64,000 nucleotides of DNA from a bacterium. Its GTDB lineage: Bacteria > Bacteroidota > Bacteroidia > Bacteroidales > FEN-979. The stretch covers positions 17,057 through 81,056 of the forward strand of contig JBAXDH010000002.1 in NCBI GenBank assembly GCA_037141055.1. Direction: 5' to 3'. The translations under genes were made by a program, and so were the position numbers. Below the pieces are notes generated by a model that was not told where the DNA came from, did not search any database, and saw only the letters and a list, made by a program, of their open reading frames with translations. Positions within the stretch are counted from its first letter, which is position 1. Each line of letters opens with the position of its first letter. This document shows positions 134 to 62,881 of this stretch, piece by piece.

Positions 134-161
134 TTTTTCATTTTTCACTGTTCATCTTTCA
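134..161. repeat. Heptamer tandem array TTTTTCA x4 (TGAAAAA-type on the minus strand)
   Basis: Units tttttca/tttttca/ctgttca/tctttca were read directly. The array contains the TGA stop (152-154) of the M20 gene. Confidence 0.85.
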
Positions 162-1366
162 CTGCTCGTTGCTGTCTCCCTCAATACCTCCACCGCAAAC
201 CACGCCATAAGCCCCATGCCGGTCTGCAGGCATTGCTCATCCACATCGAAGGTGGCGGTGTGAAGATTGGAACCTATCCCTTTTTCCTTGTTGGCAATAC
301 CAAGCCTGAACATGCACGACGGCACCTCGCGGGCAAAATAGGCAAAGTCTTCGGCCGTCATTCGTTTTTCCAGTTCTTTAACGTGACCGGCTCCCAGGTA
401 TTCCGATGCCAGCCGGAAGAGTGTGGCGGACAGATCCGGGTCATTGTACAGGAACGGGTATCCATGGGCAATTCTCACATCACAGGCAGCTCCCATTGCC
501 GAAGCGATGCCGCCGGCAATTGTCCCGATGCGCCTGTGAACCTCCTTTCGCCATGACTCATCGTAGGTGCGCACGGTTCCTTCGATTTTCACTTCATCCG
601 GGATGATGTTGGTGCGACCGTCGCCGGTAATCTTTCCGAACGACAGCACCGTCGGCATCACCGGGTCGGCATTGCGGCTCACGATCTGCTGCAGCGCAAC
701 AATGATATGTGAAGCAACCAGGATGGGGTCGATCACCTGGCTGGGCGTTGCGGCATGGCCGCCCTTTCCCTTCACGGTCAGAAATATTTCGTCGGTTGAA
801 GCCATGTAGGCCCCGGGCCGCAAACCTGCCTCCCCGGCATCCAGGGTGTTGATGACATGCTGGGCAATGACGAACTGCGGTTTCGGATTTTCAAGGACCC
901 CCTCCCCGATCATGCGGATGGCTCCACCCGGGTAAGTTTCTTCGGAGGGCTGGAAAATAAGCTTTACCGTACCTTCAAACTGATCTTTAACGGCATTCAG
1001 AATCTTTGCCGCTCCAAGCAGGCAGGCCATGTGCACGTCATGACCGCAGGCATGCATTTTCCCCGGTGCGGCGGATTTATATTCGACATCATTTTCCTCC
1101 CGGATGGGCAGAGCATCCATATCCGCCCGGAGCGCAATGCAGCAGGAAGCAGGGTTTCTGCCTTCAATGAGTCCGACAATGCCCGTTTCCGCCACCCCGC
1201 TTTTATAAGGGATCCCGTATTCGTCGAGTTTGCTGCAGATAAACTCGGCGGTACGAAATTCTTCACAGGATAATTCAGGATTCTGATGAAAGTGCCGGCG
1301 GATTGCCACAACCTCCTCAAAGCAGGAACGCGACAATGATTCGATCTCTTGTTTTAAATGTGCCAT
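152..1366 (-). CDS. M20 family amidohydrolase (N-acyl-L-amino-acid amidohydrolase / hippurate hydrolase-like)
   Basis: 404-aa ORF with peptidase M20D-type metal-binding blocks (HACGHDVH, FQPSEE, GKGGHAA). The stop codon at 152-154 lies inside heptamer array 134-161. Confidence 0.85.
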   Translation of the reverse strand: MAHLKQEIESLSRSCFEEVVAIRRHFHQNPELSCEEFRTAEFICSKLDEYGIPYKSGVAETGIVGLIEGRNPASCCIALRADMDALPIREENDVEYKSAAPGKMHACGHDVHMACLLGAAKILNAVKDQFEGTVKLIFQPSEETYPGGAIRMIGEGVLENPKPQFVIAQHVINTLDAGEAGLRPGAYMASTDEIFLTVKGKGGHAATPSQVIDPILVASHIIVALQQIVSRNADPVMPTVLSFGKITGDGRTNIIPDEVKIEGTVRTYDESWRKEVHRRIGTIAGGIASAMGAACDVRIAHGYPFLYNDPDLSATLFRLASEYLGAGHVKELEKRMTAEDFAYFAREVPSCMFRLGIANKEKGIGSNLHTATFDVDEQCLQTGMGLMAWFAVEVLRETATSSER

Positions 1367-1405
1367 TGTATCGGACTGTAAATAAAATACAAAAGTAGGG
1401 AATGT

Positions 1406-4400
1406 TTAATTGAGCATCAACTTCAGGGTTGAAACCGAGCTCCCGGCCTGTACCCTTACAAAATAAAGGCCTCCCCGGAAACCTGCCAGGTTTAACGTGA
1501 TCAGCTCATGAATTCCATCCGGTGAAGGGGTTTGTTCCATTAATGTTCTGCCGGTAAGATCGAAAATTGTAATCTTACAATGCCCGCTGAAGTTCCTGTT
1601 TATTTCGATGGTCACATGATCCGTTGCAGGATTCGGATAAATCCTGAATAATGCTGAGGAATTTGCCAGTTCCCCGGACCCCGAGCAGTAGTCAACATGC
1701 ATATACTTTTGTTTCAGGATCGTCCGTGTATGGATCCCGTTCGAAACGGTCAGGTTCACATCATATTTCCCGGGGATGTCATACCTCACCAATGGATTAA
1801 CCTCCGTACTTGTGGCCGGGATTCCTCCTGGAAATTCCCAGTTCCTCGTCGTGATATTATCGAAGGAATCGTCACTGAACATGACAGTCTGCCCCTGGCA
1901 TGAGGAGGTGCCTGCAGCATGGAACAATGGCCATGGCCCTGTAATGTTAAGATCAAAAAACTCGAGATAACGCTGCATCAGCACGGTATGGGTAGAAGGA
2001 GCCGATCCGCCACCCATCTGGCTGAAATCAAGCATCGTCCCGATGGTCTTATAATCACTGCCGTGATATGCGAACTCCAGGTTCCTTGCAGGAGTATCCG
2101 TATTGACCAGTGTCGGATACGCCGGGGCCTGGGGTTCAAGGCTGAATACAGAATAATTGATGGGAGCCAGGTAGGAATAGTTCATGAACTCTGTAAACGT
2201 TTGTGGCACTCCCTTCACTGTGGGATAAAAATAGACCGGCACCTTTTTACTTGTGTATTTAAACATCGGCAGCAACGCTGTCTTGTTAAAATAATACCAT
2301 GTATAATAGCTCTCCAGGTAGAGATTTCCCCCATGCTGCAGGTAGGTAACCAGGGCGGCAGTTTCCTGATCGGTAAGTACATGTGAACCGGAAGATGCAG
2401 TGCCGAGGATCAGGAAGATGCTGCTGTAACGATCTAAACTGAACAGCAGGTCACTGATGGTATCATGACCGATATTCAGGCTTTCGAGGGCATTCATCAT
2501 GGCCATCATGGAAGCGCGGGAGGCTGCCAGGTTGACAAGTGCGACCGGCCTGGTTCCGATCAGAAGGGTGGCGCTGAGTGTTTGAATAACTCCCGAGGAA
2601 TCTCTCAGTGTGACCTGGACCGGCACCTCCATCCCGGGCTGTGCATGGCGTGAAGCTTTGATCTGAAAAAAGTAATCTTCAACTGTAAACACGTTCAGCT
2701 CACCGATCTGGATTTGAGGGGCCGATAAAACTGTGACCACGGTATCCGATGAGATGACTTTCAACTGAAGGTTCCGGGCCATCAGTGAACCTGTATTCCT
2801 GACGCTCACCCTCAGTTCGGCTACCTCCCCGGGATCGAGGCGTTCGTTGTACCCATCTGCTACGACAGGGGTTTCAACCTCCAGTTCAGGCTCCGCAACA
2901 GGGAACACAAGCTCCTTTGACCAGGTCCGGGTGGCAGTTTGGGAGCGCAGGGTCATCATCACCGGGTAGTTGTTTGGCAGGGTCTGGCCCAGCCGGAAAG
3001 AAAATGCTGTCGGTATGGTCAGCGTTTGGCCGGGACTGATCATCGGAACCGTAAATGAACTATCAGACAGCAGGATGTAGCTCTCTGCAGTTCGGAGCTT
3101 TAAAATAAGGTTTTGTAACGGCTGGCTGCCATTATTTGTTAATACCAGTTTCAGGGAGGCCTGCATTGCCTTTTTCAACCGCTTGTCATTGCCGCATATC
3201 AGTTCATCAGCGACCGATAAACCATCTGATAAAAACAGCATTTTTGAACCGGAAATCTTCCTTGAATCCGCCACACGGATGTTGAGGCCATAGATTATGG
3301 ACGAATCTGCCTGGCTTACAGTTAAGAAACCTGACCTTGAGAGGTTTAGTCCCGGGGGTAAAACCGGAGGATAAAAGATGAAACTCTTTCCCGAAAGGTC
3401 GTTCGCATTCCATTGGGTCTGAATGTCATAATTGAGCCCGTCACCTTTCGAAACCCCCTTGTAAAACGTATGAACGAAGCCCTGGTTGTTCATCGTGCCG
3501 TAGCAGAATTCAAACCGCCCGTCGGGATACAGGATCACTGAAAAATCATCAGTCGACCCTGTTATATACCTTGAAACGGAGGTTTTCCACCGGATGACGG
3601 CCTGGCTGGCATCCGCCTGGTACCATATTCCGTCGTTTTTGTTGGCCTGGTAAACATACTGTTGCGAGAAGGAGGGCACGATCAGCGGGAACATCCGCAG
3701 CATGGCCGTTTCATCGGTGGTGTATGGGGCAGGCAGGCTTTGCGGTTCAAAGGCGATGAACCCGTCATAATTTACATAAATCGAATCGTATTTCTTTCCG
3801 AAGAAAGGAAAACTGAACGGCAGGGCCACCGATGCAAAATACCTGGTTTCATAATGCACCTGGATGGATGTTCCCCCGATGAGCGGTTCGGGGGTGGAAG
3901 AGGGCTTGTTGATATACTCCTCCGCAACCGACCAGTCATACGGAGGCGTCCCTCCCGAAGCCTGCAACTGTACCTGCAGGGGCTGTGTTCCGGTGAACGG
4001 GGGCAGGCTGTTCGTTGCAACCCGCACATCCGGTTTTTCAAAGGCAGCTACCGCCGAAACCAGCGTCATATTGTTTTCCCTGATAACCACATCCGTGTCC
4101 CTCACGGGGATTTCCTGTGCCGACCCGTCATAACGGATGAATGACGCACGTTTGATCATCCCCTGGCCGATCTGGTCAGGATCCCGTTCCTCCACCATCA
4201 TGAAAAAACGGGCAGGTTGTCCTGACGGGACATAATTGAGCAAGTCAGACACATCCAGTCCAAACTCAATTGATTCAGCCCCGGGTAAGGTATCATTTCC
4301 AGTCATGACATGTTCCCCGCCCTGGAAGTTGAAGATGGGAAAATCAATCACATGTTCGGGGAACTGAGCCAGCGTATCACTGCTGACACCCGCCAGTATC

Positions 4401-5491: not shown

Positions 5492-5635
5492 GGAATAACT
5501 TCCGGCATGTGATTTTCCGGAAAAATTATAAATATTCGGACAGAAGCAAAGTTACGAAGATTCAAATGATCCTTAATCCGGAATTAATATTTACTTTTAC
5601 GCCTTCAAATGCAATGCTGCGTTAACTTTATCTTC

Positions 5636-5980
5636 ATGAAAATCAAGGGCTTTTTTTTATTCTTAATACTTCTGGCCACGATCAGCAGTTGCAAACATGT
5701 GGTTCAGTACGATTGCACGGGGGCCACACCTACCTATACGGCAAATGTCAAGCCCATTCTCGATGCAACCTGTGCGCTTTCCAATTGTCATTCGGGACAT
5801 GGTGAAGTATTCGACCTTTCCACCTATGCAAGTGCCTCATCGGCAAGTAAGAAAAAAAGTTTCATGGGATCGATCCAGCACATGCCATTCTACGAGAAAA
5901 TGCCCAGGAATGCGGACCGGCTGACAGATTCACAGATTCACGTCCTATCTTGCTGGTGCCAGAACGGTTCGCCGGAATAG
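5636..5980 (+). CDS. Small lipoprotein with cytochrome-c-like (PSCyt1-like) motif, function unknown
   Basis: The ORF track starts at 5609. The lipoprotein signal MKIKGFFLFLILLATISSC starts at ATG 5636. KPILDATCALSNCH ... MP..ADRLT..QI..L..W resembles planctomycete-type cytochrome c domains, but the motif is C-x4-CH, not CxxCH. Confidence 0.5.
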   Translation: MKIKGFFLFLILLATISSCKHVVQYDCTGATPTYTANVKPILDATCALSNCHSGHGEVFDLSTYASASSASKKKSFMGSIQHMPFYEKMPRNADRLTDSQIHVLSCWCQNGSPE

Positions 5981-5985
5981 TCAGA

Positions 5986-6051
5986 GTGACAAGTGACAAA
6001 TGACAAATGATAAATAAGCCGGATTTTCATTTGTAATTTGTCACTTGTAAT
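5986..6051. terminator. 25-bp inverted repeat built from GTGACAA heptamers; bidirectional terminator-like hairpin
   Basis: The left arm gtgacaagtgacaaatgacaaatga (5986-6010) pairs with tcatttgtaatttgtcacttgtaat (6027-6051): 22 Watson-Crick pairs, 1 G-U and 2 mismatches. The loop is 16 nt. It lies between the convergent stops at 5980 and 6054. Confidence 0.8.
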
Positions 6052-6053
6052 TC

Positions 6054-7592
6054 TTACAATGGGATATTCCCATGTTTCTTCGGTGGGTTGGTTTTACTCT
6101 TGTTCTGTGTAAGTTCCAGCGCTTGGATGAGTTTGGTTCTGGTTTGGCGCGGAAGGATAATCTCATCCACATAACCCAGTTCGGCAGCTTTATAAGGGTT
6201 GGCAAACGTTTCGCGGTAATGATCGACAGCCTCGGCGCGATCGGCCTCATTCAGTTTCCCCTTGTGAATGATATTTACGGCGCCCTCTGGACCCATTACC
6301 GCAATTTCCGCGGTCGGATATGCATAATTTACATCCGCACCAATGTGTTTGCTCGACATCACATCATAGGCTCCGCCGTATGCCTTGCGGGTGATCAGGG
6401 TGATCTTTGGCACGGTAGCTTCAGAAAATGCATACAGTAATTTGGCTCCATGCTTGATGATCCCGCCAAATTCCTGGTTTGTACCCGGAAGGAAGCCTGG
6501 AACGTCGACCAGCGTAATGAGCGGAATGTTGAAGCAATCGCAGAACCTGACAAAGCGTGCGCCCTTGATGGACGAGTTGATATCCAGCACCCCGGCCAGG
6601 AAAGCAGGCTGGTTTGCGACGATTCCAACCGGTTTTCCGCCCAGGCGGGCAAACCCGGTAAGGATATTCTGCGCATAATGGGGCATCACCTCGAAAAAGT
6701 TATGATTGTCAACAACCGTGCTGATGAGTTCTTTCATGTCGTACGGTTTGTTGGGATCGGCCGGAACCAGCGTCTGGAGTTTCTCGTCCTGCCGCATTAC
6801 ATCGTCGGTACATGGCTGTGCAGGCGGATCTTCCATATTATTGGCAGGCAGGAAACTCATCAGTTCGCGGATCATCAGGATAACCTGTTCGTCGTTTTCA
6901 GCCGCGAAATGCGCCACACCGCTTTTCGAATTGTGCGACATGGCCCCGCCAAGTTCTTCCATGGTCACCTCTTCGTGGGTAACCGTTTTAATTACTTCGG
7001 GTCCTGTTACGAACATATAGCTCGATTCCTTGACCATGAAAATGAAATCGGTGATGGCCGGGGAATAGACGGCACCTCCTGCACAGGGGCCCATGATGGC
7101 TGAGATCTGCGGGATCACGCCCGAAGCCATCACATTCCTGTAAAAAATATCGGCATAACCGGCGAGGCTTTCAACGCCTTCCTGGATACGGGCTCCGCCC
7201 GAGTCGTTCAGCCCGATGAGCGGCGCACCCATTCGCATGGCCATGTCCATGATTTTAACCACCTTGTCGGCATTGGCCCGGCTCATGGTACCCCCGAAAA
7301 CAGTAAAATCCTGGGCAAAGACAAATGTGAGGCGCCCGTCGATTTTGCCGTAACCCGTCACCATGCCATCGCCCGGCACCTTGTTATGTCCCATCCCGAA
7401 ATCATGGCAACGGTGCATGACCAGTTTGTCCATTTCAACGAATGAGTTCACATCAAGCAGCGTGAGAATACGCTCGCGGGCAGTCATCCTCCCGTTTTTA
7501 TGGATCTTGGCAATTTTATCAACACCGCCACCCAACTCAGCCTTGCGATTTTTATCGTCAAAAAACTGAAAACGTTCTTCTATGGTTTGCAT
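6054..7592 (-). CDS. Acyl-CoA carboxylase carboxyltransferase subunit (propionyl-CoA carboxylase beta / methylmalonyl-CoA carboxyltransferase family)
   Basis: 512-aa ORF with blocks typical of this family ([36 protein letters not shown]). It is last in a three-gene minus-strand operon with biotin carboxylase and BCCP. Confidence 0.9.
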
Positions 7593-7620
7593 AATTTAGA
7601 GTTTGGTAAAAGGTTTAAAA

Positions 7621-7634
7621 GCGGACAGGCGGAC
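7621..7634. repeat. Short GGCGGACA-family array (about 1.75 units)
   Basis: gcggacaggcggac lies in the BCCP-carboxyltransferase spacer. The same unit occurs at 16680-16712 and 39955-39980. Confidence 0.6.
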
Positions 7635-7641
7635 CATTTCG

Positions 7642-8175
7642 CTATTCCGCTGGTTCGCTGGTGATATTTTCCAATTTTATCATCACCTGGTGCGAATCAA
7701 CGGTGTCGCCTTCTTTGACAAGAATTGCCTGTACAATTTTATCGCCGGTTGCTTTGAATTCACTTTGCATCTTCATGGCTTCCACCACGATGAGTGTATC
7801 GCCTGTTGCAACGACATCACCGACTTTGACAGGAATCTTGACGATCTTGCCGGGCATGGGGGACGCAACCTGGTTGGATCCTTCGACTTCCTGGCCTTTG
7901 TTGCGGTTGCTTATATACTTTGATTCTGCATCGATGACCTCAGCGTTGAAAGTTTTCGCAAAAGTGTTCACGATGAACTTTTTGCTCGACTCCCCCCTGA
8001 TCAGCTCAACATTGTACGAATGCCCGTTGTATAAAATGGAATAGACCCCGTTTTCAACTTCCACAATGTCGAGGTCATATTTATGGTCATCAACTTTGAT
8101 CAGGGCTTTGTTCCCAACCCGGTTGAGCAGTTCAATCTTTGCCGTGCGGTGTCCGATACTTATTTCGTATGCCAT
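7642..8175 (-). CDS. Biotin carboxyl carrier protein (biotin/lipoyl attachment domain)
   Basis: 177-aa ORF. The C-terminal biotinyl domain carries the EAMKM biotinylation motif (VVEAMKMQSEF). It sits between biotin carboxylase and carboxyltransferase. Confidence 0.85.
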   Translation of the reverse strand: MAYEISIGHRTAKIELLNRVGNKALIKVDDHKYDLDIVEVENGVYSILYNGHSYNVELIRGESSKKFIVNTFAKTFNAEVIDAESKYISNRNKGQEVEGSNQVASPMPGKIVKIPVKVGDVVATGDTLIVVEAMKMQSEFKATGDKIVQAILVKEGDTVDSHQVMIKLENITSEPAE

Positions 8176-9693: not shown

Positions 9694-9870
9694 GGGGTTG
9701 ACAATTAAAACTATTTATTCTGATTCTAAAAATCGGGCAAAACTATTAAAAAATAACCTTGCAGCCGTAATCACACATGCATATTTAAGGATATTTAACA
9801 TTTACCGGTTCAAAAAACAGGCAGATTTTATTGATATTTCTGTTGATTTTTAACGATATTTGGCGAATAT

Positions 9871-15002: not shown

Positions 15003-16175
15003 TTAGTTCTCAGCATCCAAAAATTCATCGGCATCATCGTAAGCCTCAAGTTTGCGGCCAAGCAGCGGGAGCACTTTCCCGGTGATCATGCCTGTTATGA
15101 CGGCAACCACAACCGTCACGAGTATACCCATGAGCTGGCTTTCCATGTGAAGGCCTTTGACGACAGGCAGGGCCACCAGTCCGCCCATTAACCCGGGAAG
15201 GCCATGGAGATTTGTAACTCCGCAGGTGTCGATGATCTTCATCAGTTTCTGCTGCCTCGACTGTATGACGGCAAATCCGAACGTGGAGAGGCCGCCTGCC
15301 ATGATGCCGATGATAACGGCCATGGTATGGCTTGCATCGGCGCAGGTTGAACCGATGGCAACACCACCGGCCAGGGCTGCATTGGCAATGTCGGCTATGC
15401 TGATCTTTTTCCGGATGGAAACGGAGACGAGATAGGTTGTGAGCGTGGACCCGCAGAGCGCGAGGATTACGTTAACAACAGTGTGTGGCATTTGTGCCGG
15501 TGGTACCAGTGCTGCGCAGAAACTCGGCCAGAATATCCAGAGCATCATGCTGCCAAGCATCGAGTACCTGTCGCTGGTTGAATCGGTTTCAATGGTCTTT
15601 TCAAACTCCTGTTTCGTAGTCATGGTAAGGGCAACGCCCAAACCGAAAATAGCACCAAATGCGTGGATCACGATCGACCCGCCGGTATCGACAACACCGC
15701 CGGCTTTAATCAGTCCAAGGCCTCCGTTGAGGACAATCCATTCATTCAGCATGTAGAATGGCACAAACAGCAATCCGAGCAACACATACTGCTGCATTTT
15801 AAGCCGGCCAAGAACCGCACCTGCCGCAATGAGCAAACTGGCCGCCCCGAATTCGGCAAGGATCAGCCTCCTGATTTCGCCGTCGGCATCCCCCAGGCCA
15901 ACCCTGTTGACCAGCATATAGAGCGGAAGGGATGTGCTTACCAGTAAAAAAGTTGCTGTCAGGGCCGAACGGCCATATTTCCTGACAAAAACCATTAAAA
16001 ATCCAAAACCGATCAGCAGCATCGCCATGATGTGAATGGCCCGGTTATACTGCTGGTCATCAATCACTCCTGAAGCGAGGGTATTTCCTGCTGCTTCAGC
16101 TGCGGATGCAATTACAGGAATCCCGGTGAGAATGAACAACATAACAATTAATTTAAAGTACCAGTGTTTTCGCAT
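15003..16175 (-). CDS. Rh-type (Rh50) ammonium/ammonia channel
   Basis: 390-aa polytopic ORF. Blocks IGFGFLMVFVRKYGRSA, DTGGSIVIHAFGAIFGLGV, LGSMMLWIFWPSF and NLHGLPGLMGG match Rhesus-family signatures rather than AmtB-type ones. Confidence 0.85.
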   Translation of the reverse strand: MRKHWYFKLIVMLFILTGIPVIASAAEAAGNTLASGVIDDQQYNRAIHIMAMLLIGFGFLMVFVRKYGRSALTATFLLVSTSLPLYMLVNRVGLGDADGEIRRLILAEFGAASLLIAAGAVLGRLKMQQYVLLGLLFVPFYMLNEWIVLNGGLGLIKAGGVVDTGGSIVIHAFGAIFGLGVALTMTTKQEFEKTIETDSTSDRYSMLGSMMLWIFWPSFCAALVPPAQMPHTVVNVILALCGSTLTTYLVSVSIRKKISIADIANAALAGGVAIGSTCADASHTMAVIIGIMAGGLSTFGFAVIQSRQQKLMKIIDTCGVTNLHGLPGLMGGLVALPVVKGLHMESQLMGILVTVVVAVITGMITGKVLPLLGRKLEAYDDADEFLDAEN

Positions 16176-16676: not shown

Positions 16677-16679
16677 AAA

Positions 16680-16712
16680 GGCGGACAAGCGGACGGGCGG
16701 ACAGGCGGACGG
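16680..16712. repeat. Octamer tandem array GGCGGACA x4
   Basis: ggcggaca agcggacg ggcggaca ggcggacg g, starting 4 nt after the rbfA stop. Confidence 0.9.
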
Positions 16713-16752
16713 TTTTGCATTTTGAATTTGCATTTTAACTTTTGAATTTTTT
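16713..16752 (+). promoter_or_regulatory. AT-rich TTTGCATTTTGAA-family repeat abutting the methyltransferase start codon
   Basis: ttttgcattttgaatttgcattttaacttttgaatttttt ends 2 nt before ATG 16755. The 16-mer TTTGCATTTTGAATTT recurs, in gene orientation, just upstream of sufC (62851-62881). Confidence 0.5.
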
Positions 16753-16754: not shown

Positions 16755-17576
16755 ATGCAGTACGATCCTATTAAAAAAACCCTGGGAAAGGTCTTCAACA
16801 CAACACCATTTCTGCGGGTATTGTTTTACAAGCTGCTCGACCTGCTGCTGTTGCGCGCCTGGCATGTGCATGACGAAATCAGGTCATGGGCCGGATCCCG
16901 AAGCGGCAACCGTGCTTCGAAACTTTTCATCCTCGACGCAGGTTCGGGTTTCGGGCAATATACCTATTTTCTTTCCGGCCTCTCTCCAGCATGGTTTGTC
17001 GACGCCGTGGATGTAAAGGATGAACAGATTGACGATTGCAATGCATTTTTCACGCGGATCGGACGAAAAAATGTGCTTTTTGAAAAGGCCGATCTGACAC
17101 AATTCTCAAAGCCCGACCGGTTCGACTTCATCCTTTCCGTTGATGTGATGGAACACATCGGCGACGACGAAGCTGTGTTCCGTAATTTCTTTGATTCCCT
17201 TACCCAAAATGGCATGCTGCTGATATCGACTCCTTCCGACCAGGGCGGTTCTGATGTTCACGACCATGAAGAAGGAGAATCATTCATCGATGAACATGTA
17301 CGCGACGGGTATAACATCACCGAAATCCGGGAAAAGCTTGAACGTGCAGGGTTTACAAAAACTGAAGCGCGCTTTACATACGGAACTCCGGGAAAAATAG
17401 CCTGGAAGTTGTCCATGAAATACCCCATCCTGATGCTCAATGCCACGAAACTCTTTTTCATCCTGCTGCCTTTTTATTATATCCTCACCTACCCCATCGC
17501 TTTTTTCTGCAACTGGCTGGATACGAAAATGAAGCATGAGACCGGGACAGGGTTGGTGGTGAAGGCGTGGAAGTAG
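16755..17576 (+). CDS. Class I SAM-dependent methyltransferase
   Basis: 273-aa ORF with SAM-binding motif I ILDAGSGFGQYT and post-I/II acidic residues (DAVDV, SVDVMEHI). Confidence 0.75.
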   Translation: MQYDPIKKTLGKVFNTTPFLRVLFYKLLDLLLLRAWHVHDEIRSWAGSRSGNRASKLFILDAGSGFGQYTYFLSGLSPAWFVDAVDVKDEQIDDCNAFFTRIGRKNVLFEKADLTQFSKPDRFDFILSVDVMEHIGDDEAVFRNFFDSLTQNGMLLISTPSDQGGSDVHDHEEGESFIDEHVRDGYNITEIREKLERAGFTKTEARFTYGTPGKIAWKLSMKYPILMLNATKLFFILLPFYYILTYPIAFFCNWLDTKMKHETGTGLVVKAWK

Positions 17577-17590
17577 GTGGGTGGAAAGGC

Positions 17591-17622
17591 GTGAGTGGTG
17601 AGTCGTGAGTCGTGAGTGGTGA
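17591..17622. repeat. Heptamer tandem array GTGAGTS x4.5
   Basis: gtgagtg gtgagtc gtgagtc gtgagtg gtga, between the methyltransferase stop (17576) and the FtsX-like gene. The same family occurs at 38113-38136. Confidence 0.9.
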
Positions 17623-23386: not shown

Positions 23387-23416
23387 GATTTTCGATTGGG
23401 CGATTGACGATTGATA
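23387..23416. repeat. GATTGAC-family tandem array (4 imperfect units)
   Basis: gattttc gattgggc gattgac gattgatac, just downstream of the Omp28 gene stop (23422). The family recurs at 27630-27665. Confidence 0.8.
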
Positions 23417-23421: not shown

Positions 23422-24282
23422 TCACGGCTTTATAACCGGCGATTTCATCACATGAAGCACTTCCTGCGTTTTCGAATTGGAGATGAAAGCGATAACACTG
23501 CAGTTGGCAGGAATCCAGGTTTCGGTACTGAAATTTTTGGAATAAGTTTTGGAGATATGATCCTGGGCTTTGGGATTAATTGCGACCTGTTCCCCAAAAC
23601 TTGTGTTCAGCGATCCACGCAAAATGTGCATGAACCGGAAAATTTTAATGATTGGGACGGAATCGGGCTTGATGATATTCAACTGCCCGCCGTAAATATT
23701 GTCCTCAAGGATGCAGACCGTAAGATTTACGGTGCCGGTATATCCGGCCAGGAATTTTATATCAACTTTTGAATTCATCATTTTGGTCGGGGCATCAAAC
23801 GTGTTATGGACCGTCATGACTGCAATTTTGGGCAACGTTGTGGCTACCTGAACAGCCTGGTTCCACTCCGAAGGGCCGAAGGAAATATTTCCCTTGTACG
23901 GCAGCCTGTTCACCATCCCCTTGGGATTTCCGTCGATGTTGAAGGCACTGTTTGCAAGCCAGTCATTTCCTGCAGTGCAGGTATAATCGGCCTCAAGGTA
24001 AGGCGGATACTGAACCGGGTTTGGCCTGGCAAACTGGCCTGCATGCACGGCGATCACAAATGCCTGCCCTGCATAAAGTTCCTGGATGGTGTTGGCGATT
24101 TTTGCGGCAGGGGCGCAGTTTACACACAGGTGGCCGGTATAATCCTCAATCAATACCGATCGTTTGGTGGTGTCAACATACACGGATTTTACAGTGTAAT
24201 ACGGATCACTGATCTTGGTGCACGACTGGAATAAAACAGCACCAAAGAGCAGAAGGATGGTTATCTGGAAAATCGTTTTCAT
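23422..24282 (-). CDS. Omp28-related outer-membrane lipoprotein (CxxC)
   Basis: 286-aa ORF with lipoprotein signal (LLFGAVLFQSC) and block VLIEDYTGHLCVNCAPAAK typical of the Omp28 family. Confidence 0.65.
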   Translation of the reverse strand: MKTIFQITILLLFGAVLFQSCTKISDPYYTVKSVYVDTTKRSVLIEDYTGHLCVNCAPAAKIANTIQELYAGQAFVIAVHAGQFARPNPVQYPPYLEADYTCTAGNDWLANSAFNIDGNPKGMVNRLPYKGNISFGPSEWNQAVQVATTLPKIAVMTVHNTFDAPTKMMNSKVDIKFLAGYTGTVNLTVCILEDNIYGGQLNIIKPDSVPIIKIFRFMHILRGSLNTSFGEQVAINPKAQDHISKTYSKNFSTETWIPANCSVIAFISNSKTQEVLHVMKSPVIKP

Positions 24283-27629: not shown

Positions 27630-27665
27630 GATTGACGATTGGACGATTGACGGTTGACGATTTTC
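27630..27665. repeat. GATTGAC-family tandem array (5 units)
   Basis: gattgac gattggac gattgac ggttgac gattttc in the divergent manA/LOG spacer. Confidence 0.9.
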
Positions 27666-27745: not shown

Positions 27746-28339
27746 ATGATTAAAACCCTTTGTGTTTTCTGCGGTTCAAGTGTCGGACGACAGCCGCTGT
27801 ATTCGCATCATGCCGTTAAACTTGCCGAACACCTCCTTGCCGAAAAAATAACCCTGGTATACGGGGGAGCCAATGTCGGGCTGATGGGAATTCTTGCCGA
27901 TACGATGCTGGCCGGCGGCGGAAAAGTAATCGGGGTTATGCCCAAATCGCTTGTTGCACGCGAGGTTGCCCATGAGAACCTGACCGAAATGCACATCGTC
28001 GACGGGATGCAGGAACGCAAGGCACTGATGGCGAATCTGTCGGATGCTTTTGCCGCGCTTCCCGGTGCCTACGGAACACTCGACGAACTCTTCGAGGTAC
28101 TTACCTGGAACCAGCTCGGCATCATCAATAAACCCATCGGGTTGCTGAACATCGACAATTTTTTCAACCCCATGCTGCAGATGCTCGATCATATGGTGGC
28201 TGAAAAGTTCCTTCGCCCGGAACATCGCAGCATGCTGCTCTGCGGAAATGACTTTGCCGAATTGCTGAAGGAACTTGAGGAATACCGGCCTGTTGCTGCG
28301 GAGAAGTGGATTGAACGGTTGAAAGCCGGGGCAATTTAA
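27746..28339 (+). CDS. LOG-family (TIGR00730) nucleotide 5'-monophosphate nucleosidase
   Basis: The ORF-track start at 27632 is a TTG inside repeat 27630-27665. ATG 27746 gives MIKTLCVFCGSS. YGGANVGLMG and PGAYGTLDEL motifs are diagnostic of LOG proteins. Confidence 0.85.
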   Translation: MIKTLCVFCGSSVGRQPLYSHHAVKLAEHLLAEKITLVYGGANVGLMGILADTMLAGGGKVIGVMPKSLVAREVAHENLTEMHIVDGMQERKALMANLSDAFAALPGAYGTLDELFEVLTWNQLGIINKPIGLLNIDNFFNPMLQMLDHMVAEKFLRPEHRSMLLCGNDFAELLKELEEYRPVAAEKWIERLKAGAI

Positions 28340-28387
28340 TGCCAGCAATGCAAACAATGCAAGCAATGCAGACAATGCAGGAAATGG
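28340..28387. repeat. Nonamer tandem array TGCARNCAA x5
   Basis: tgccagcaa tgcaaacaa tgcaagcaa tgcagacaa tgcaggaaa tgg, starting immediately after the LOG stop codon (28337-28339). Confidence 0.9.
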
Positions 28388-28402: not shown

Positions 28403-28443
28403 TTTGATTTTTACAATTTGATTTTGCAATTTGATTTTTTGAT
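28403..28443 (+). promoter_or_regulatory. AT-rich TTTGATTTT(T)RCAA repeat abutting the kinase-like gene start
   Basis: tttgatttttacaa tttgattttgcaa tttgattttttgat is followed directly by ATG 28444. Its composition and position resemble 16713-16752. Confidence 0.45.
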
Positions 28444-38112: not shown

Positions 38113-38136
38113 GTGAGTCGTGAGTGGTAGAGTCGT
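38113..38136. repeat. GTGAGTS-family heptamer array (about 3 units)
   Basis: gtgagtc gtgagtg gtagagtc gt, in the 42-bp spacer between the permease stop (38139) and the TauE start (38096). Confidence 0.8.
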
Positions 38137-38138: not shown

Positions 38139-39893
<1,755 letters not shown>

Positions 39894-39954
39894 GTGGAAA
39901 TTTTCGCTAAAGGTAATTTTTTTTCCAATGGGGCTGGTGTTGAATGAGTAAACA

Positions 39955-39980
39955 GGCGGACAGGCGGGCGGGCGGACAGG
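39955..39980. repeat. Octamer tandem array GGCGGACA-family x3.25
   Basis: ggcggaca ggcgggcg ggcggaca gg in the divergent permease/NAD(P)H-binding gene spacer. Confidence 0.85.
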
Positions 39981-47508: not shown

Positions 47509-49335
47509 GTGGAAATTGTGAAAGAAAATTCAAAGGGCTTCCTTGCATTCCTGCTGCTGTTTATATTCCCGGTATCGGTACTCTACAGCCACGTCGATCA
47601 GGCCGGATATACCAGGATCTTGATTTCAGAGATCAGGGCCGCCGGGAACGACAGTGTGAAAATCAGCAAACTCGGCAGCCTTGCCTTCTTTTACCTCGAC
47701 TATGCCGGCAATGGCCGTTTAGCCGACAGTGTCAGCGAAACAGCCATCCGGCTTGCCGAGAAAAGTCACCGGCCCGAATTGCTGTTCCTTGCATATAACA
47801 TCTACGCCGAATCGAACGATCTGCACGAATTCAACCGGAAGGCGCTTGGCTATGCGTTGAAGGCGGAACAGATTCAGTTCAACGCAAAAAGTCCGGAACA
47901 GGTATTCCGTAATGATAAAAACCTGGTATCCGTTTTTCTGGCGGGCTACGGGTTCGACAAAGCCCTGGAGTACAGTTACAAGATGCTTTCGATAGCAGGA
48001 ACCTTGGAAAATGTTGAATTAAAGGCGGAAAGTTATCTCTCCATCGGGCAAAGCCTTGAAGGTAAAAGTCAGAAAGTTGAAGCCTTCCGAAACTACCTGA
48101 ACGCCGCAAGCCTTGCCGACAGGTCAGGCAACCTGGATTTAAGAATCATCTGCTGTTCCAGGCTGTCGGATTTCTACAACTTCAATAAGTTATACGACAA
48201 GGCTACCCGCTATAAATTGGTGCAGCGCGATCTGATTGTCAGGAACATGCCCGTAGATTCGGTTGCGCTGATGTGGGCGGAATATGAACTGCAGGTAATC
48301 GACCTCAATTCGAACTATAACGAGCTGTATGAAGGAAACATGAAGACCATTCTTGATTTCGCCGTGAGAAACAACCACAGGAGGATGCTGAACTATGAGA
48401 TTGCGCTGATTCGCACGCATTACATTGAAGCGAACAAAATAGTCCTACTGCATGATTTTTATTACAAAAAATTCCCGGGAGAACTTGCAAGGCTTTCTTC
48501 AGACAATCCCGCACTGTTTTTCCGGCTCAAGGCGTTTTTTTGCGAAGAGGAGCACATGCCTGATTCTGCGCTCTATTATTTCACCCTGGCCGAAACAAGA
48601 TTGCAATCCGATGCGAATCCGATCCTTCAATCGAAATTTTATTCCCGCTTCGGGCAGTTCCTCGTTCGGCACGGCTTCAGGGACAAAGCTATCGGGGCAT
48701 TTACAAAATCGATGGAGCTTGCCAGAACTGCATCCTATATTGAATACATGCTGGGCGCAGCCAAACAGCTTGAAGAATTGTACGCGGGCAAAGGAGATTA
48801 TAAAAATGCGTTCGCTTACTCCGTGTTAAACAAAGCGTTAAACGACAGCATCAGCAACATGTCGAAAAAGGATCAGTTGCTGATCATGGAAATCGACCAT
48901 GAAACCAGGCAGCGGGACCTTGCCTTTGAGCTGGAAAAACAGTCCACCGCAAGGAGGCACTATCTGCAATATACCGCCATGACCATCGGGATCCTGACCG
49001 TGTTTGTCATTCTGATCATGCTGGGCAGTTTAAAAGTTCCCGAATGGATCATCCGGATGCTGGGATTCTTCTCCTTTATCTTTCTGTTTGAATTCATTGT
49101 TTTGCTGGCTGACAAGATGATTGAAGAGATTACCCATGGCGAGCCCTGGAAAATACTGCTTATCAAGATATTCCTCATCGGAATCCTTCTTCCCCTTCAT
49201 CACAGCATTGAAAAGCGTGTCATCACGTACCTGCTTAACCACAAACTGATCAATATTCCCGGCTTTTCGATGGTAAAGAGGTTCAGGGCGCGGGGGAAGA
49301 AGAAGAAGTTAACGGGTGAAAAGGTGACAGGGTAA
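47509..49335 (+). CDS. TPR-like repeat protein with C-terminal transmembrane helices
   Basis: 608-aa ORF with a GTG start per the ORF track. It has N-terminal signal-like and helical repeat regions and three to four hydrophobic helices near the C-terminus. Its last codons and TAA stop (49333-49335) lie inside octamer array 49323-49410. Confidence 0.6.
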   Translation: MEIVKENSKGFLAFLLLFIFPVSVLYSHVDQAGYTRILISEIRAAGNDSVKISKLGSLAFFYLDYAGNGRLADSVSETAIRLAEKSHRPELLFLAYNIYAESNDLHEFNRKALGYALKAEQIQFNAKSPEQVFRNDKNLVSVFLAGYGFDKALEYSYKMLSIAGTLENVELKAESYLSIGQSLEGKSQKVEAFRNYLNAASLADRSGNLDLRIICCSRLSDFYNFNKLYDKATRYKLVQRDLIVRNMPVDSVALMWAEYELQVIDLNSNYNELYEGNMKTILDFAVRNNHRRMLNYEIALIRTHYIEANKIVLLHDFYYKKFPGELARLSSDNPALFFRLKAFFCEEEHMPDSALYYFTLAETRLQSDANPILQSKFYSRFGQFLVRHGFRDKAIGAFTKSMELARTASYIEYMLGAAKQLEELYAGKGDYKNAFAYSVLNKALNDSISNMSKKDQLLIMEIDHETRQRDLAFELEKQSTARRHYLQYTAMTIGILTVFVILIMLGSLKVPEWIIRMLGFFSFIFLFEFIVLLADKMIEEITHGEPWKILLIKIFLIGILLPLHHSIEKRVITYLLNHKLINIPGFSMVKRFRARGKKKKLTGEKVTG

Positions 49336-49410
49336 CAGGGGAACAGGGTAACAAGGTAACAGGGTAACAGGGTAACAGGGTAACAGGGTAACAGGGTAAC
49401 AGAGTGACGG
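49323..49410. repeat. Octamer tandem array GGTAACAG x11
   Basis: ggtgacag ggtaacag gggaacag ggtaacaa, then ggtaacag x6, then agtgacgg. The second unit provides the TAA stop of the TPR-like gene. Confidence 0.95.
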
Positions 49411-49460: not shown

Positions 49461-49494
49461 TTCACTTGTCACTTGTCACTTGTCACGTTGTCAC
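49461..49494. repeat. Heptamer tandem array TTGTCAC x4 (reverse complement of the GTGACAA family)
   Basis: ttcac ttgtcac ttgtcac ttgtcac g ttgtcac. Same family as the hairpin arms at 5986-6051. Confidence 0.9.
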
Positions 49495-49530
49495 TAAATA
49501 TCAATCATTCACAAATAAACCATACTGCAT

Positions 49531-50088: not shown

Positions 50089-50206
50089 GGGGGTGTGGGT
50101 TTGGGGGGCAAAGGTAAGGAAAAGGAGGACAGGTCACTTGTCTGCTTTTTTTGTTAAAATATGTTAATTAATAGTACCATGTATTGCATAGTACTAAGTT
50201 TTGCAT

Positions 50207-50214: not shown

Positions 50215-50218
50215 CCGC

Positions 50219-50569: not shown

Positions 50570-50613
50570 CGGGTTGGCAAATTTAGTTTACACAATTTCA
50601 ATTTATAATATCC

Positions 50614-53408: not shown

Positions 53409-53614
53409 GATTCAGGTTTAATGTGCAAATTTAGCTGAATTTTTTCTCATACTCCTTAACTATCAGTCAAACCGACCGAACACGGCTCTGCGCCATTTTC
53501 ACAGTTCGGGCGATCGTACCAATACATTTCAGTACTTCAGTTCACTAAAGCGTACATCCGGAAATTTTTTGTAGTTTTATCTCCGAATAATCCACCTCTA
53601 AACCATCTGCCATC

Positions 53615-56496: not shown

Positions 56497-56657
56497 TTCT
56501 GTGCCAACCCTTGTACCCCGGCCCCATCGGGGCCTCATTCTGGTAGCCCGCAGTTAACCTGGACCTTCTGCGCGCCGTAGGTGCGCGATTATTGTTATTC
56601 AGAGCCCTTGGTTATTCAATCCATTATGATTTTCTCACGAAGAAAATTGTATTTTGT

Positions 56658-56689
56658 TTTGCATATAGAACAATATTATAGTATATTTG
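56658..56689 (+). promoter_or_regulatory. Bacteroidota-type promoter (TTTG-N20-TATATTTG)
   Basis: The -33 TTTG at 56658-56661 and the -7 TATATTTG at 56682-56689 both match consensus with 20-nt spacing. It is 21 nt upstream of ATG 56711. Confidence 0.65.
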
Positions 56690-62032: not shown

Positions 62033-62049
62033 TGCTCACGTATTTACCT

Positions 62050-62089
62050 CACCCCCCGGCCCCCTCTCCCACGGGAGAGGGGGAGGGTG
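62050..62089. repeat. GC-rich palindromic element in the sufC-sufD spacer
   Basis: cccccTCTCC-cacg-GGAGAggggg forms a 10-bp stem (62060-62069 with 62074-62083). An outer caccc/gggtg pairing (62050-62054 with 62085-62089) flanks it. Confidence 0.8.
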
Positions 62090-62091
62090 TG

Positions 62092-62844
62092 CTACTTTTG
62101 TTCTTGTTTTATCCAGTCGTACCCTTTTTCCTCGAGTTCGAGCGCCAGTTCTTTTCCGCCTGATTTAACGATCTTCCCTTCGAAAAGCACATGAACAAAG
62201 TCAGGCACGATGTAATCGAGCAGGCGCTGGTAATGGGTGATGACCACGAAGGCATTGTCGCTGCGGCGGAGTTTGTTCACGCCATTGGCAACAATGCGAA
62301 GTGCATCAATATCAAGTCCTGAATCGGTTTCATCCAGGATGGCCAGCATGGGTTCGAGCATGGCCATCTGGAAAATTTCATTCTTTTTCTTTTCACCCCC
62401 TGAAAATCCCTCATTTACAGAGCGGTTGGTAAGGTTTGAAGTGATCTCAACGAGCCTTTTCTTTTCTTCCATCAGGCGGAGAAAATCACCGGCGGGCAAC
62501 GGATCAAGGCCTTTGAACTTACGCACCTCATTCACTGCCGTGCGCATAAAGTTGGTGATGCTGACGCCGGGAATTTCCACCGGGTACTGGAATCCCAGGA
62601 ATATCCCCTCCCGGGCGCGGTCTTCGATGGATAGCTTCTGCAGGTCTTTCCCCTGGTAGAGAATTTCCCCGGCCGTAACATCAAACACTTCCCGGCCGGC
62701 TATCACTGAAGCCAGTGTGCTTTTCCCGGTTCCGTTCGGGCCCATGATGGCGTGTACTTCGCCTTTGTTCACCTCCAGGTTGACTCCCCGGAGAATTTCT
62801 TTGCCGTTGATGCTGGCGTGAAGATTTTTAATTTGTAGTAGCAT
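62092..62844 (-). CDS. sufC: Fe-S cluster assembly ATPase SufC
   Basis: ATG 62844 gives MLLQIKNLHASING. Walker A GPNGTGKST, signature FSGGEKK, Walker B AILDETDSGLD. Confidence 0.93.
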   Translation of the reverse strand: MLLQIKNLHASINGKEILRGVNLEVNKGEVHAIMGPNGTGKSTLASVIAGREVFDVTAGEILYQGKDLQKLSIEDRAREGIFLGFQYPVEIPGVSITNFMRTAVNEVRKFKGLDPLPAGDFLRLMEEKKRLVEITSNLTNRSVNEGFSGGEKKKNEIFQMAMLEPMLAILDETDSGLDIDALRIVANGVNKLRRSDNAFVVITHYQRLLDYIVPDFVHVLFEGKIVKSGGKELALELEEKGYDWIKQEQK

Positions 62845-62850
62845 GTAAAT

Positions 62851-62881
62851 AAATTCAAAATGCAAAAATAAAAATGCAAAG
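62851..62881 (-). promoter_or_regulatory. AT-rich TTTGCATTTTGAA-family element immediately upstream of sufC
   Basis: The minus-strand reading is ctttgcatttttatttttgcattttgaatttatttac, followed by ATG 62844. It shares the 16-mer TTTGCATTTTGAATTT with 16713-16752. Confidence 0.5.

Follow-up and report, generated by a model that had tools for sequence, protein, structure and literature searches.

Intergenic heptamer repeats have been ranked by surveys as the most abundant periodic repeat of prokaryotes (bioRxiv 309039), and in Nostoc PCC 7120 TTTTGAA-type arrays are reported to stand 5' of start codons genome-wide, the deletion of a heptamer repeat having altered reporter activity. Bacteroidota showed a high STR density in a survey (PMC12699852), and MacGregor (2015) described heptamer direct repeats in five Bacteroidetes and proposed that S1, Csp or Csr proteins bind TAACTGA repeats (PMC4679880). 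In view of these publications, the statement in the initial annotation of the DNA studied here, that nothing equivalent was known in Bacteroidota, was too strong. In this study, we analyse a window of 64,000 nt, which is the whole stretch of DNA under consideration, from a lake bacterium of the Bacteroidales, together with syntenic loci of its relatives. Judging from sequence comparison, the explanation that we favour, with a confidence slightly above even, is that the arrays are hypermutable repeats of 7-8 nt, of the STRR/LSSR kind, which would be generated by slippage, filtered for their orientation and partly used as hairpin arms.

Arrays in the spacers of the window

Arrays were called in the 64-kb window with TRF (period 5-12, three or more copies, minimum score 30), and 200 segment-wise dinucleotide shuffles of the window served as control. 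Fourteen arrays were observed against 0.54 ± 0.73 expected, with a shuffle maximum of 3, and TRF together with direct reading of the spacers recovered nearly all the arrays listed initially. Under conservative longest-ORF gene calls, intergenic DNA accounts for half or more of the length of 11 of these 14; since Pfam matches and the sequence itself place two true starts at ATG 40017 and ATG 27747, two further arrays become intergenic, and the claim that arrays populate spacers is borne out by 13 of 14 lying in or bordering spacers, to which 5.6% of the window belongs. Coding DNA is nearly free of arrays. Most of them occupy presumably transcribed intercistronic or 3' spacers without a promoter box, and the arrays are not promoters, as only 1 of 17 TAnnTTTG -7 boxes falls within an array. 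Known RNA families and tRNA were not found in the window.

The following calls are from TRF except where stated. A TGAAAAA-type heptamer of about four copies on the minus strand (about 133-164, with 77% matches at 133-161, read also from the spacer sequence; initially given as TTTTTCA x4) overlaps the stop codon, 152-154, of an M20 peptidase gene (152..1366, minus; Pfam). GTGACAA x4.1 (5987..6015, plus) begins directly after the stop of an ORF at 5609..5980 (plus), and the same family recurs inverted, as ACAAGTG/ACAAATT on the minus strand, at 6029..6052, directly 3' of the stop of the carboxyltransferase gene (6054..7592, minus). The adjoining BCCP-carboxyltransferase spacer (7593..7641, minus) is contracted, and holds, in the minus strand reading, one copy of GAAATGGT and two of GTCCGCYT (7621-7634, the two copies of the GGCGGACA family); its orthologues in relatives are arrays with 1-14 copies, and the BCCP gene also has its 3' end inside a degenerate array (~7642). 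A full array of GGCGGACA x4 (16679..16712, plus) begins 3 nt past the rbfA stop (16676), its sense strand being purine-rich and its unit without a stop codon, and is followed by T-rich TTTTGMA x5.6 (16713..16750, plus), which ends 4 nt 5' of a methyltransferase ATG (16755), in a spacer that folds more poorly than its shuffles (z +1.4). GTGAGTS x4.7, with an additional period of 21, spans about 17562..17622 (17590-17622; plus), between the methyltransferase stop (17576) and an FtsX-family gene (start 17639, L001 call).

GTCAATC, initially written as GATTGAC, occurs on the minus strand as about four imperfect copies at 23387..23416, visible by eye and under the TRF score threshold, 3' of the stop of a gene at 23422..24282 (minus), and as 4.6 copies at 27630..27662, in a divergent spacer, 9 nt upstream of a mannose-6-phosphate isomerase start (27620) and facing a LOG-family gene, which is the gene with its true start at 27747. 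The 9-mer AATGCAAAC, in 4.7-5 copies (28338..28386, plus) and without a stop codon in its unit, begins at the codon that terminates the LOG-family gene (28339), and a TTTGATT-type T-rich array of period ~13/7 (28403..28439, plus) ends 4 nt 5' of ATG 28444, with a spacer z of +1.6. GACTCAC x3.3, of the GTGAGTS family (38113..38136, minus), lies between a permease stop (38139) and a TauE-family gene start (38096). The sole in-CDS array, ATCCCGC x7.4 with a 21-nt super-period (38369..38420, minus; initially GCGGGAT x7), was indeed found to be coding: it specifies the linker HPVSRIPYPISRIPH, which joins the core of an amino-acid permease to its C-terminal domain. GGCGGACA x3.6 (39952..39980, plus) occupies the divergent spacer 39894-40016, in front of the NAD-binding gene that starts at 40017. 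In GGTAACAG x10 (49323..49402, plus), which has the same copy number in the independent assembly L084, unit 2 holds the TAA stop (49333-49335) of the ORF 47509..49335; both this stop and that at 152-154, reported initially as lying within arrays, were verified. CACTTGT x4.7 (49462..49495, plus) is the GTGACAA family inverted, with a pyrimidine-rich plus strand, upstream of a 42-codon ORF remnant. Finally, T-rich TGCATTT x4.3 (62851..62880, minus) follows a GC-rich stem-loop (62870-62903), precedes an ABC ATPase gene (ATG 62844), and is the only array with a TAnnTTTG -7 box. The three T-rich arrays at 16713-16750, 28403-28439 and 62851-62880, each directly upstream of a start codon, were absent from the initial list.

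Copy-number change and turnover

Apart from the window's origin in a metagenome-assembled genome, nothing speaks for the arrays being artefacts of sequencing or of the assembly of short metagenome reads, a reading to which we give next to no probability. The check on independent assemblies proposed in the initial annotation found the arrays base-for-base identical in ENA, NCBI, JGI and Logan assemblies from different samples, an agreement which refutes the artefact, and arrays are present in the genomes of 31 of 36 related species, often in the same spacers. Over window positions 2609-27576 and 41554-53756, independent assemblies are 99.8-100% identical, and their sole gap is the exact deletion of one 7-nt unit: the sister assembly L245 lacks exactly one TGACAAA (5994-6000) of the array at 5987..6015. 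For two other samples, alleles of +7 and -7 nt follow from the gene coordinates, which also imply that the spacer of the array at 17562..17622 is shorter by 7 nt in two other samples. The copy-number polymorphism suggested as a further check is thus found, and array length shifts by whole units between near-identical strains. Array purity is highest in the interior and falls toward both edges.

The arrays have multiplied within a single freshwater lineage of the Bacteroidales, of Prolixibacteraceae/Draconibacterium-like MAGs: period-7/8 arrays reach 2.42 per 10 kb at syntenic loci of 36 related lake Bacteroidales MAGs versus 0.19 at 44 outgroup loci, with a more than 10-fold spread of density among the syntenic relatives. 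Among 181 clade arrays, 87 have period 7 and 60 period 8, while periods 6 and 9 have 6 each; the heptamer peak appears again at 120 metagenome loci (320/453 arrays). At least 120 of the 181 are intergenic, in a clade where intergenic DNA is 7.2% of bases (p = 7e-91). The same spacers bear arrays in most genomes, and between species units and copy numbers (1-20) are replaced as the spacer sites are kept. Neutral DNA would not be expected to be retained in this way, given a bacterial deletion bias, between genomes with a DNA identity of only about 75-80%, and the retention counts against the favoured explanation; the BCCP-carboxyltransferase spacer ranges across relatives from 14 to 257 nt with 0-4 arrays, which argues that the arrays are dispensable.

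Orientation, stop codons and RNA folding

The orientation of the arrays follows the neighbouring genes. The sense strand is purine-rich in 38 of 39 post-stop arrays and pre-start arrays are pyrimidine-rich in 22 of 25, and the same polarity is found at homology-anchored gene ends (post-stop 43:13, pre-start 13:2) and in the relation of spacer position to purine fraction (Spearman -0.60, p = 1e-11). It amounts to one strand-symmetric rule: at either end of a gene, purines are enriched on the strand that leads 5' to 3' out of the gene and into the spacer. A non-random orientation had been noted initially in six of eight arrays, and is stronger here; the polarity itself was not part of that finding. 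Pre-start arrays carry a sense ATG or GTG in 4/26 cases versus 16/26 antisense and end 4-30 nt from the start codon, and 48 of 74 post-stop arrays begin at the stop codon or at most 5 nt from it.

It had been proposed that arrays act as three-frame stops, being retained since 7-8 nt units with TGA, TAA or TAG stop all frames and are a fail-safe against read-through or frameshifted ribosomes. Such a role would fit the closeness to stop codons, the all-frame sense stops in 25 of 43 post-stop arrays versus 6 of 43 antisense, the at least three window genes that terminate inside arrays, and T-G-A as the best-conserved heptamer positions. Most of the stop excess is accounted for by base composition, however (32 of 43 post-stop units are stop-bearing versus 26.2 ± 2.7 after letter shuffling), of which the three-frame stop is mostly a by-product, and a random 60 nt of equal composition already has all-frame stops. 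Moreover, GGCGGACA, GTGGACAA and AATGCAAAC arrays share the post-stop position without any stop codon, the same families are also found inverted 5' of start codons, and relatives have array-free spacers of 14-40 nt at the BCCP-carboxyltransferase site. Sense orientation after a real stop codon is only 20:11 in the metagenome sample, and pre-start, divergent-spacer and 10-20 copy arrays are left unexplained. We consider it improbable that the arrays are retained for this purpose.

At convergent genes, both post-stop arrays stand in sense orientation, and would therefore be inverted repeats of each other and form a long hairpin (z about -7). The arrays at 5987..6015 (5' arm) and 6029..6052 (3' arm) give 37-nt arms, 84% complementary, with -30.2 kcal/mol and z -7.2; relatives have a plain short terminator-type hairpin at the same site. 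Hairpins are restricted to convergent ends (median z -5.3 versus ~0 in co-directional spacers); the co-directional ones fold more poorly than shuffled sequence (z +0.8 to +1.6), operon-internal arrays being structure-poor. These features, with the strong polarity and the array ends close to start codons, would suit arrays that are under selection as cis-acting RNA modules in the spacers between cistrons, and whose copy number tunes expression: purine-only or pyrimidine-only direct repeats would give structure-free RNA, pyrimidine/U-rich pre-start arrays would be platforms for S1 or other single-strand RNA-binding proteins in a phylum without Shine-Dalgarno pairing, and inverted pairs would be terminator or mRNA-stabilising hairpins. 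Positions kept across genus-level divergence, a small common unit vocabulary with a shared core, and the Nostoc and TAACTGA precedents speak for it as well. On the other hand, the spacers of the same operon are short and free of arrays in many relatives, density varies greatly among syntenic genomes, units of the same spacer are scarcely more alike across genomes than those of different spacers (2.7% vs 2.0% identical), and the hairpin arm at 5987..6015 drops one unit in L245 although the other arm shows nothing that would compensate for it; nor did any protein emerge as a candidate for binding the units. We regard these modules as possible, though rather doubtful.

Origin of the arrays and comparison with known repeats

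The claim that units recur as families holds: identical canonical units are found in 20/293 pairs of non-adjacent arrays within a genome (6.8%) versus 86/5071 between genomes (1.7%; p = 8e-7), a 4-fold excess for which slippage alone is insufficient. Units also have a common core (T-G-A among 7-mers, G-Y-G-A among 8-mers), with a fit 8 SD above letter-shuffled units, and this non-random core counts against the favoured explanation. The re-use of units within a genome, at 6.8% against the 2.7% given above for orthologous spacers, and the purine strands pointing to the spacer centre could be accounted for by a templated or mobile mechanism, such as the addition of repeats at DNA breaks, with a template specific to the genome, or ectopic conversion among arrays; the strand-symmetric purine-to-pyrimidine layout and the inverted pairs of one family inside a single spacer are in keeping with it. 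We nevertheless judge it very improbable, as same-family arrays lack conserved flanks, terminal repeats and target duplications, each genome has several unrelated families, and single-unit indels point to slippage. In addition, purity is symmetric, if anything higher gene-proximally, the opposite of distal terminal addition, and the annotated parts of the window showed neither a reverse transcriptase nor a transposase gene.

Under the favoured combination of slippage and selection, replication slippage would make and resize the arrays, the 7-8 nt peak would come from the slippage machinery and not from reading-frame logic, and selection would sort which arrays survive. At gene 3' ends, only units that quickly stop read-through or frameshifted ribosomes would be retained, and as such units would be a T followed by purines, the sense strand would become purine-rich. 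Near start codons, only units free of ATG and GTG would survive; these would be pyrimidine- or T-rich and may keep the region of SD-independent initiation unstructured. To yield the single strand-symmetric rule, such a filter has to invoke two different selective reasons, both ad hoc, which counts against it.

The arrays belong with cyanobacterial STRR, LSSR(5-11) and the prokaryotic intergenic heptamer repeats, as members of the short-unit simple-sequence class, and the heptamer peak of the clade is that of published surveys (PMC4679880, bioRxiv 309039). The kind of repeat is thus already known; what differs here is its gene-dependent orientation.

Arrays in the window and in related genomes

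Under a fixed criterion (period 5–12, at least 3 copies, Tandem Repeats Finder (TRF) score of at least 30), 14 arrays were found in the window, compared with 0.54 ± 0.73 (maximum 3) in 200 shuffles that preserved dinucleotides separately inside every gene and spacer. Nearly all of the arrays located in the initial annotation were recovered by TRF; at 23387-23416 about four imperfect GATTGAC copies are seen in the spacer sequence, under the TRF score threshold. Three T-rich arrays that it had not listed (16713-16750, 28403-28439, 62851-62880) each lie immediately before a start codon. On a greedy ORF map, 5.6% of the window is intergenic, and for 11 of the 14 arrays half or more of the length falls there. 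Pfam domain boundaries together with the sequence set the true starts of two genes at ATG 40017 (the protein begins with MKIAVFGASGRTG, an N-terminus of Rossmann type) and ATG 27747 (the protein, of the LOG family, begins MIKTLCVFCGSS), which places two seemingly genic arrays upstream of genes and brings to 13 of 14 the arrays that lie between genes or run across a stop codon. The sole array within a coding sequence, at 38369-38420, preserves the reading frame and encodes HPVSRIPYPISRIPH, a linker between an AA_permease_2 core and an AA_permease_C domain. The neighbours of the arrays are housekeeping genes (the acc operon, rbfA, a LOG-family gene and a SufE-family gene), and the window genes also include type IX secretion (Por_Secre_tail) proteins. 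Exact-protein look-ups led to independent assemblies from several samples (ENA, NCBI, JGI, Logan), which span 2609-27576 and 41554-53756 at 99.8–100% identity. Within those spans all arrays were recovered, including the 10-copy GGTAACAG array, and this agreement rules out assembly artefact as their origin. As a separate observation, one unusually long spacer (330 nt), which also holds two arrays, contains a 42-codon ORF at 49533-49661 (+) whose product (MKTKIGILGSGVVAQVLGSGFMKHGYDV...) is like the N-terminal part of an NADP oxidoreductase with a Rossmann fold and is probably a truncated gene remnant.

A biotin carboxylase scan of the genome collection yielded 36 loci syntenic with the window and 44 outgroup loci. 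The syntenic loci share 79–96% amino-acid identity and only about 75–80% DNA identity, and the nearest species representatives are lake MAGs that carry the labels Bacteroidales, Prolixibacteraceae or Draconibacterium. In the DNA sampled (64 kb from the source genome, roughly 20 kb from each relative), arrays of period 7 or 8 occur at 2.42 per 10 kb in the relatives versus 0.19 in the outgroups, and at least one array is present in 31 of the 36 related loci, with a maximum of 20.7 copies. The arrays are a trait of the lineage, within which syntenic genomes range from array-rich (L015, L030, L010) to array-poor (L008, L024, L031). Window and relatives together (642 kb) hold 181 arrays, among which period 7 (87 arrays) and period 8 (60) far exceed periods 6 (6), 9 (6) and 10 (5). 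At least 120 of the 181 are intergenic by conservative longest-ORF gene calls, as against an intergenic share of 7.2% of the DNA (p = 7e-91), and many of the others fall in ORFs that exist solely through extension by a stop-free array. Very long stop-free arrays were observed in two relatives, TCACCCG x20.7 at 18433-18577 of locus L015 and, at 15338-15655 of locus L030, a mosaic 320 nt long that combines TTCTCCC with CCACGG units; each gives rise to an ORF of over 90 codons or lengthens one, and in MAG annotation such arrays will probably be mistaken for genes. The few outgroup loci with 7–8 nt arrays belong to Caldilineales (L044), the Bacteroidia chromosome OZ257140.1 (L059) and Methanobrevibacter (L072), and their arrays fit the sporadic cross-phylum distribution given in the literature; examples among the outgroup-locus arrays are GGTAGATT x11.2 and CACCTCAA x8.4.

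Unit turnover at fixed spacers

The spacer between the BCCP and carboxyltransferase genes measures 14–257 nt and holds 0–4 arrays, depending on the genome. Three kinds of array occur in it: a GARRTAGC, GGTGAAAT or ATGTGATG-type array that begins within the last BCCP codons and includes the BCCP stop, a YCACCYGT or GTCCGCYT-type array, and a TTTTGAR-type array immediately before the next start codon. The window carries a contracted form, consisting of GAAATGGT x1 and GTCCGCYT x2. At other spacers the position is likewise kept while the units change. Both at 7642-7660 of the window and downstream of the BCCP gene in the relatives L004-L039, the last BCCP codons and the stop lie inside an array, and the C-terminus is therefore rewritten by the arrays; the conserved part of the protein stops at residue 169-177, varying among relatives. 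Stop codons are shifted in this way, altering protein C-termini.

Between genomes, identical units were shared by 2.7% of array pairs from the same spacer and by 2.0% of those from different spacers, a difference that is not significant; with one mismatch allowed, the values become 10.7% and 6.3% (p = 0.005). Arrays in different spacers of the same genome share identical units in 6.8% of pairs, compared with 1.7% over all between-genome pairs (p = 8e-7), so that the repeat families proposed in the initial annotation are real, and unit identity is tied more closely to genome than to position. A loose core is common to all units, T-G-A for the heptamers and G-Y-G-A-R for the octamers, with a fit 8 SD above letter-shuffled units, and the pyrimidine-rich units are reverse complements of purine-rich ones (TTCACCTG/GGTGAACA, GTCCGCCT/GGCGGACA, TCACTTG/GTGACAA). 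GTGACAA is not specially favoured across biology, as it gave 16 viral-contig matches versus 18 for a permuted heptamer, and its 120-plus metagenome matches therefore weigh little alone.

Slippage is directly visible in changes of array length. Compared with the window, the sister assembly L245 shows a single mismatch across 874 nt and lacks exactly one TGACAAA unit (5994-6000). For two further samples, called gene coordinates, the only basis in these cases, imply +7 nt in spacer 5981-6053, and the GTGAGTS spacer comes out 7 nt shorter in each of the two. Array purity is highest in the interior and falls toward both edges, a profile that lacks the signature of telomere-like terminal addition. 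Around same-family arrays, no conserved flanks of a MITE-like kind were seen.

Orientation relative to genes and its possible origin

Among arrays adjoining only a gene 3' end, the sense strand, that of the flanking gene, is purine-rich in 38 of 39, and among those adjoining only a start codon it is pyrimidine-rich in 22 of 25. When gene ends were anchored by homology in place of ORF stops, which takes away a possible ascertainment bias in these counts, post-stop arrays were purine-rich by 43:13 and pre-start arrays pyrimidine-rich by 13:2, with the exceptions being mostly the distal member of an array pair. Put symmetrically, the purine-rich strand is the one leading 5' to 3' out of the flanking gene and into the spacer; since this holds at both ends, every spacer runs from purine to pyrimidine on both strands. 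Position in the spacer correlates with purine fraction accordingly (Spearman -0.60, p = 1e-11), a trend present in ++, -- and +- spacers and weaker in -+ ones. Replication-strand bias was rejected as the cause, because the + strand is the purine-rich one for 77 arrays and the - strand for 57, and the polarity tracks the flanking genes. A metagenome sample of 120 contigs, picked solely for GTGACAA x3 and spanning many taxa, as their GC range of 35–68% implies, has the same tendency by 31:6, or 20:11 counting only arrays that begin after a real stop codon.

As many as 48 of 74 post-stop arrays begin at the stop codon or at most 5 nt from it. The initial annotation had suggested that the arrays act as three-frame translation stops, and such stops are indeed present in the sense strand of 25 of 43 post-stop arrays, versus 6 of 43 in the antisense. 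As a reason for the arrays, the proposal fared less well: stop-bearing units number 32 against 26.2 ± 2.7 when each unit's letters are shuffled, and stop-free families (GGCGGACA, GTGGACAA, AATGCAAAC) occupy the same position. For these reasons the stops are better read as a tolerance filter, whereby an array overlapping a gene end would persist only if translation were terminated quickly. A mirror-image filter against start codons appears to operate upstream of genes, where ATG or GTG occurs in the sense strand of 4 of 26 pre-start arrays versus 16 of 26 in the antisense.

At convergent gene ends both post-stop arrays are of one family and therefore inverted. The pair at 5977-6060, with GTGACAA-family arms at 5987-6015 (+) and 6029-6052 (-), is the longest inverted repeat of the window, and for the spacer 5978-6056 the folding energy is -30.2 kcal/mol on one strand (z -7.2) and -26.7 kcal/mol on the other (z -6.9). 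A stable stem-loop directly after the gene end, as in an intrinsic (bidirectional) terminator, is present in the convergent spacer only, with only short, interrupted U runs 3' of the arms. Several relatives have the same arrangement with other units (ACAAGGTA/TACCTTGT, ATTTACG/CGTAAAT, AATGACG/CGTCATT), and others have a plain short hairpin only. Against mononucleotide shuffles, convergent spacers with at least two arrays have a median z of -5.3 (5 of 6 below -2), compared with about 0 to +0.4 in array-bearing co-directional spacers; the window's own intercistronic spacers fold more poorly than 93–97% of shuffles. Hairpins between adjacent arrays are not a general rule, as among 53 cognate pairs only 5 outdid the 5th percentile of the non-cognate set.

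Candidate promoters were found at 17 intergenic window sites as TAnnTTTG boxes (e.g., 56682-56689, 9738-9745 and 13580-13587), at distances of 5–109 nt (mostly 17–56 nt) from the start codon that follows, as expected of a Bacteroidetes-type -7 box. Only 1 of the 17 lies within an array, so that T-rich arrays are not supported as Bacteroidetes promoters and most arrays are intercistronic or 3'-UTR sequence. The full TTTG-N17-23-TAnnTTTG consensus has 2 matches in the window, outside arrays and not above chance. The boxes also help to tell operon-initial genes from internal ones. Neither Rfam families nor tRNAs were found in the window. Other structures were observed, including GC-rich CCCC...GGGG stem-loops after gene ends (62033-62091, 62866-62903, 56515-56545 and 1-20), of which the one at 62870-62903 is directly followed by a T-rich TGCATTT array and resembles an intrinsic terminator with its U-tract turned into a repeat. 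A palindrome of about 33 nt (AGACCTTCCAGG...CCTGGAAGGTCT) is present at 14964-14996 and 16279-16310, after the stop of an ammonium transporter gene (15003..16175, -) and upstream of its start, and might represent either a copied terminator or a regulatory hairpin that the two sites share. At 50171-50206, just upstream of a PadR-family regulator gene, ATAGTACCAAGTATTGC x2.1 forms a direct repeat of 17 nt that may be an operator.

Taken as a whole, we lean slightly towards the arrays being slippage-generated repeats shaped by orientation-dependent selection. A neutral model with filters leaves unaccounted both the sharing of units within genomes and the single symmetric polarity rule, and the main rival is that the arrays are truly functional intercistronic RNA elements, which we consider unlikely. 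Quite improbable in our estimation is a selected polar grammar of intercistronic RNA, with purine-rich units after stops and their reverse complements before starts, which would be read by genome-specific single-strand-binding factor(s), or act on terminating or re-initiating ribosomes, to set termination, mRNA stability and Shine-Dalgarno-independent re-initiation in operons; were units to co-evolve with the factor, unit sharing within genomes would follow. The lineage offers a natural comparative series of dozens of syntenic lake genomes, with differing units and copy numbers in corresponding spacers, in which the strict orientation rule, the array-built hairpins and the unit-step polymorphism could make function versus junk testable. 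In practical terms, the arrays cause spurious or over-extended ORFs in MAG annotation, are likely weak points in short-read assembly, and could be used as strain-typing markers.

Relation to known repeat systems

CRISPR arrays consist of 23–50 nt repeats parted by unique spacers, unlike the contiguous 7–9 nt copies described here. REP/BIME elements of enterobacteria are extragenic palindromes, in genome-specific families, located after stop codons or inside operons, whose hairpins can stabilise upstream mRNA; their units are imperfect palindromes of 20–40 nt, mobilised by RAYT transposases. The arrays are likewise extragenic, after stops and within operons, and form genome-specific families, but their units are 7–8 nt direct repeats that pair only between chance-inverted arrays, and co-directional arrays fold less well than shuffles, which sets them outside REP/BIME. 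In phase-variable contingency loci, slippage switches expression through a simple repeat that sits in the coding sequence of a surface or virulence gene or separates its promoter elements; the housekeeping neighbours, the in-frame state of the sole coding array and the single -7 box of 17 in an array speak against that class. Classical STRR units (CCCCAGT, TTGGTCA and CAACAGT), known in the strict sense from heterocystous cyanobacteria, a different phylum from the array-bearing lineage, have no tandem copies in the window or the 36 related loci.

The arrays resemble the cyanobacterial STRR and Nostoc PCC 7120 repeats in forming several intergenic heptamer families per genome, often beside start codons, and TTTTGAA, which is repeated upstream of start codons in Nostoc, is a unit in the window's T-rich pre-start arrays (16713-16750) (bioRxiv 10.1101/2022.06.06.494920). 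TAACTGA direct repeats are described from Beggiatoaceae, Cyanobacteria and five Bacteroidetes, as intergenic and preferring a 'forward' orientation just upstream of starts or after stops; the Bacteroidetes concerned also hold other heptamer repeats, and a post-transcriptional role involving S1, Csp or Csr was proposed (MacGregor 2015, PMC4679880). That system has one dominant unit, whereas here many units surround a GTGA/GYGA core, with octamers in addition, and TAACTGA x2 is absent from the window and related loci. Given the absence of those units, the arrays are not strict-sense STRR or TAACTGA repeats. The TTTTGAT heptads of the Vibrio cholerae ctxAB promoter are reported as protein-binding, strain-variable in copy number and located at one virulence locus (bioRxiv 10.1101/2021.05.14.444153); T-rich heptads of varying copy number upstream of a gene are common to both, but the present arrays lie beside housekeeping genes, with 1 of 17 candidate -7 boxes in an array.

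The closest likeness is to LSSR5-11, the prokaryotic long simple-sequence repeats with 5–11 nt units (Mrazek et al. 2007, as summarised in PMC4679880), a kind also known under the name intergenic tandem heptamer repeats (Mori et al., bioRxiv 309039); surveys describe such repeats as abundant but functionally unexplained. According to those summaries, common features are head-to-tail units of 5–11 nt with a heptamer peak, a mainly intergenic location, free-living non-pathogenic hosts, a sporadic distribution across phyla, slipped-strand length steps and a lack of established function. Here, by contrast, octamers are co-dominant with heptamers, orientation relative to genes is strict, arrays persist in orthologous spacers while genome-specific units turn over, and hairpins have arrays as arms, four traits absent from the descriptions in the portions of the literature cited. 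The units are tandem, 5–11 nt long and above chance, they peak at heptamers rather than multiples of three, lie mainly in non-coding DNA and vary in length by whole units; with every testable feature present, the arrays belong with the prokaryotic 5–11 nt simple-sequence and intergenic heptamer repeats, as these are outlined in the sources cited.
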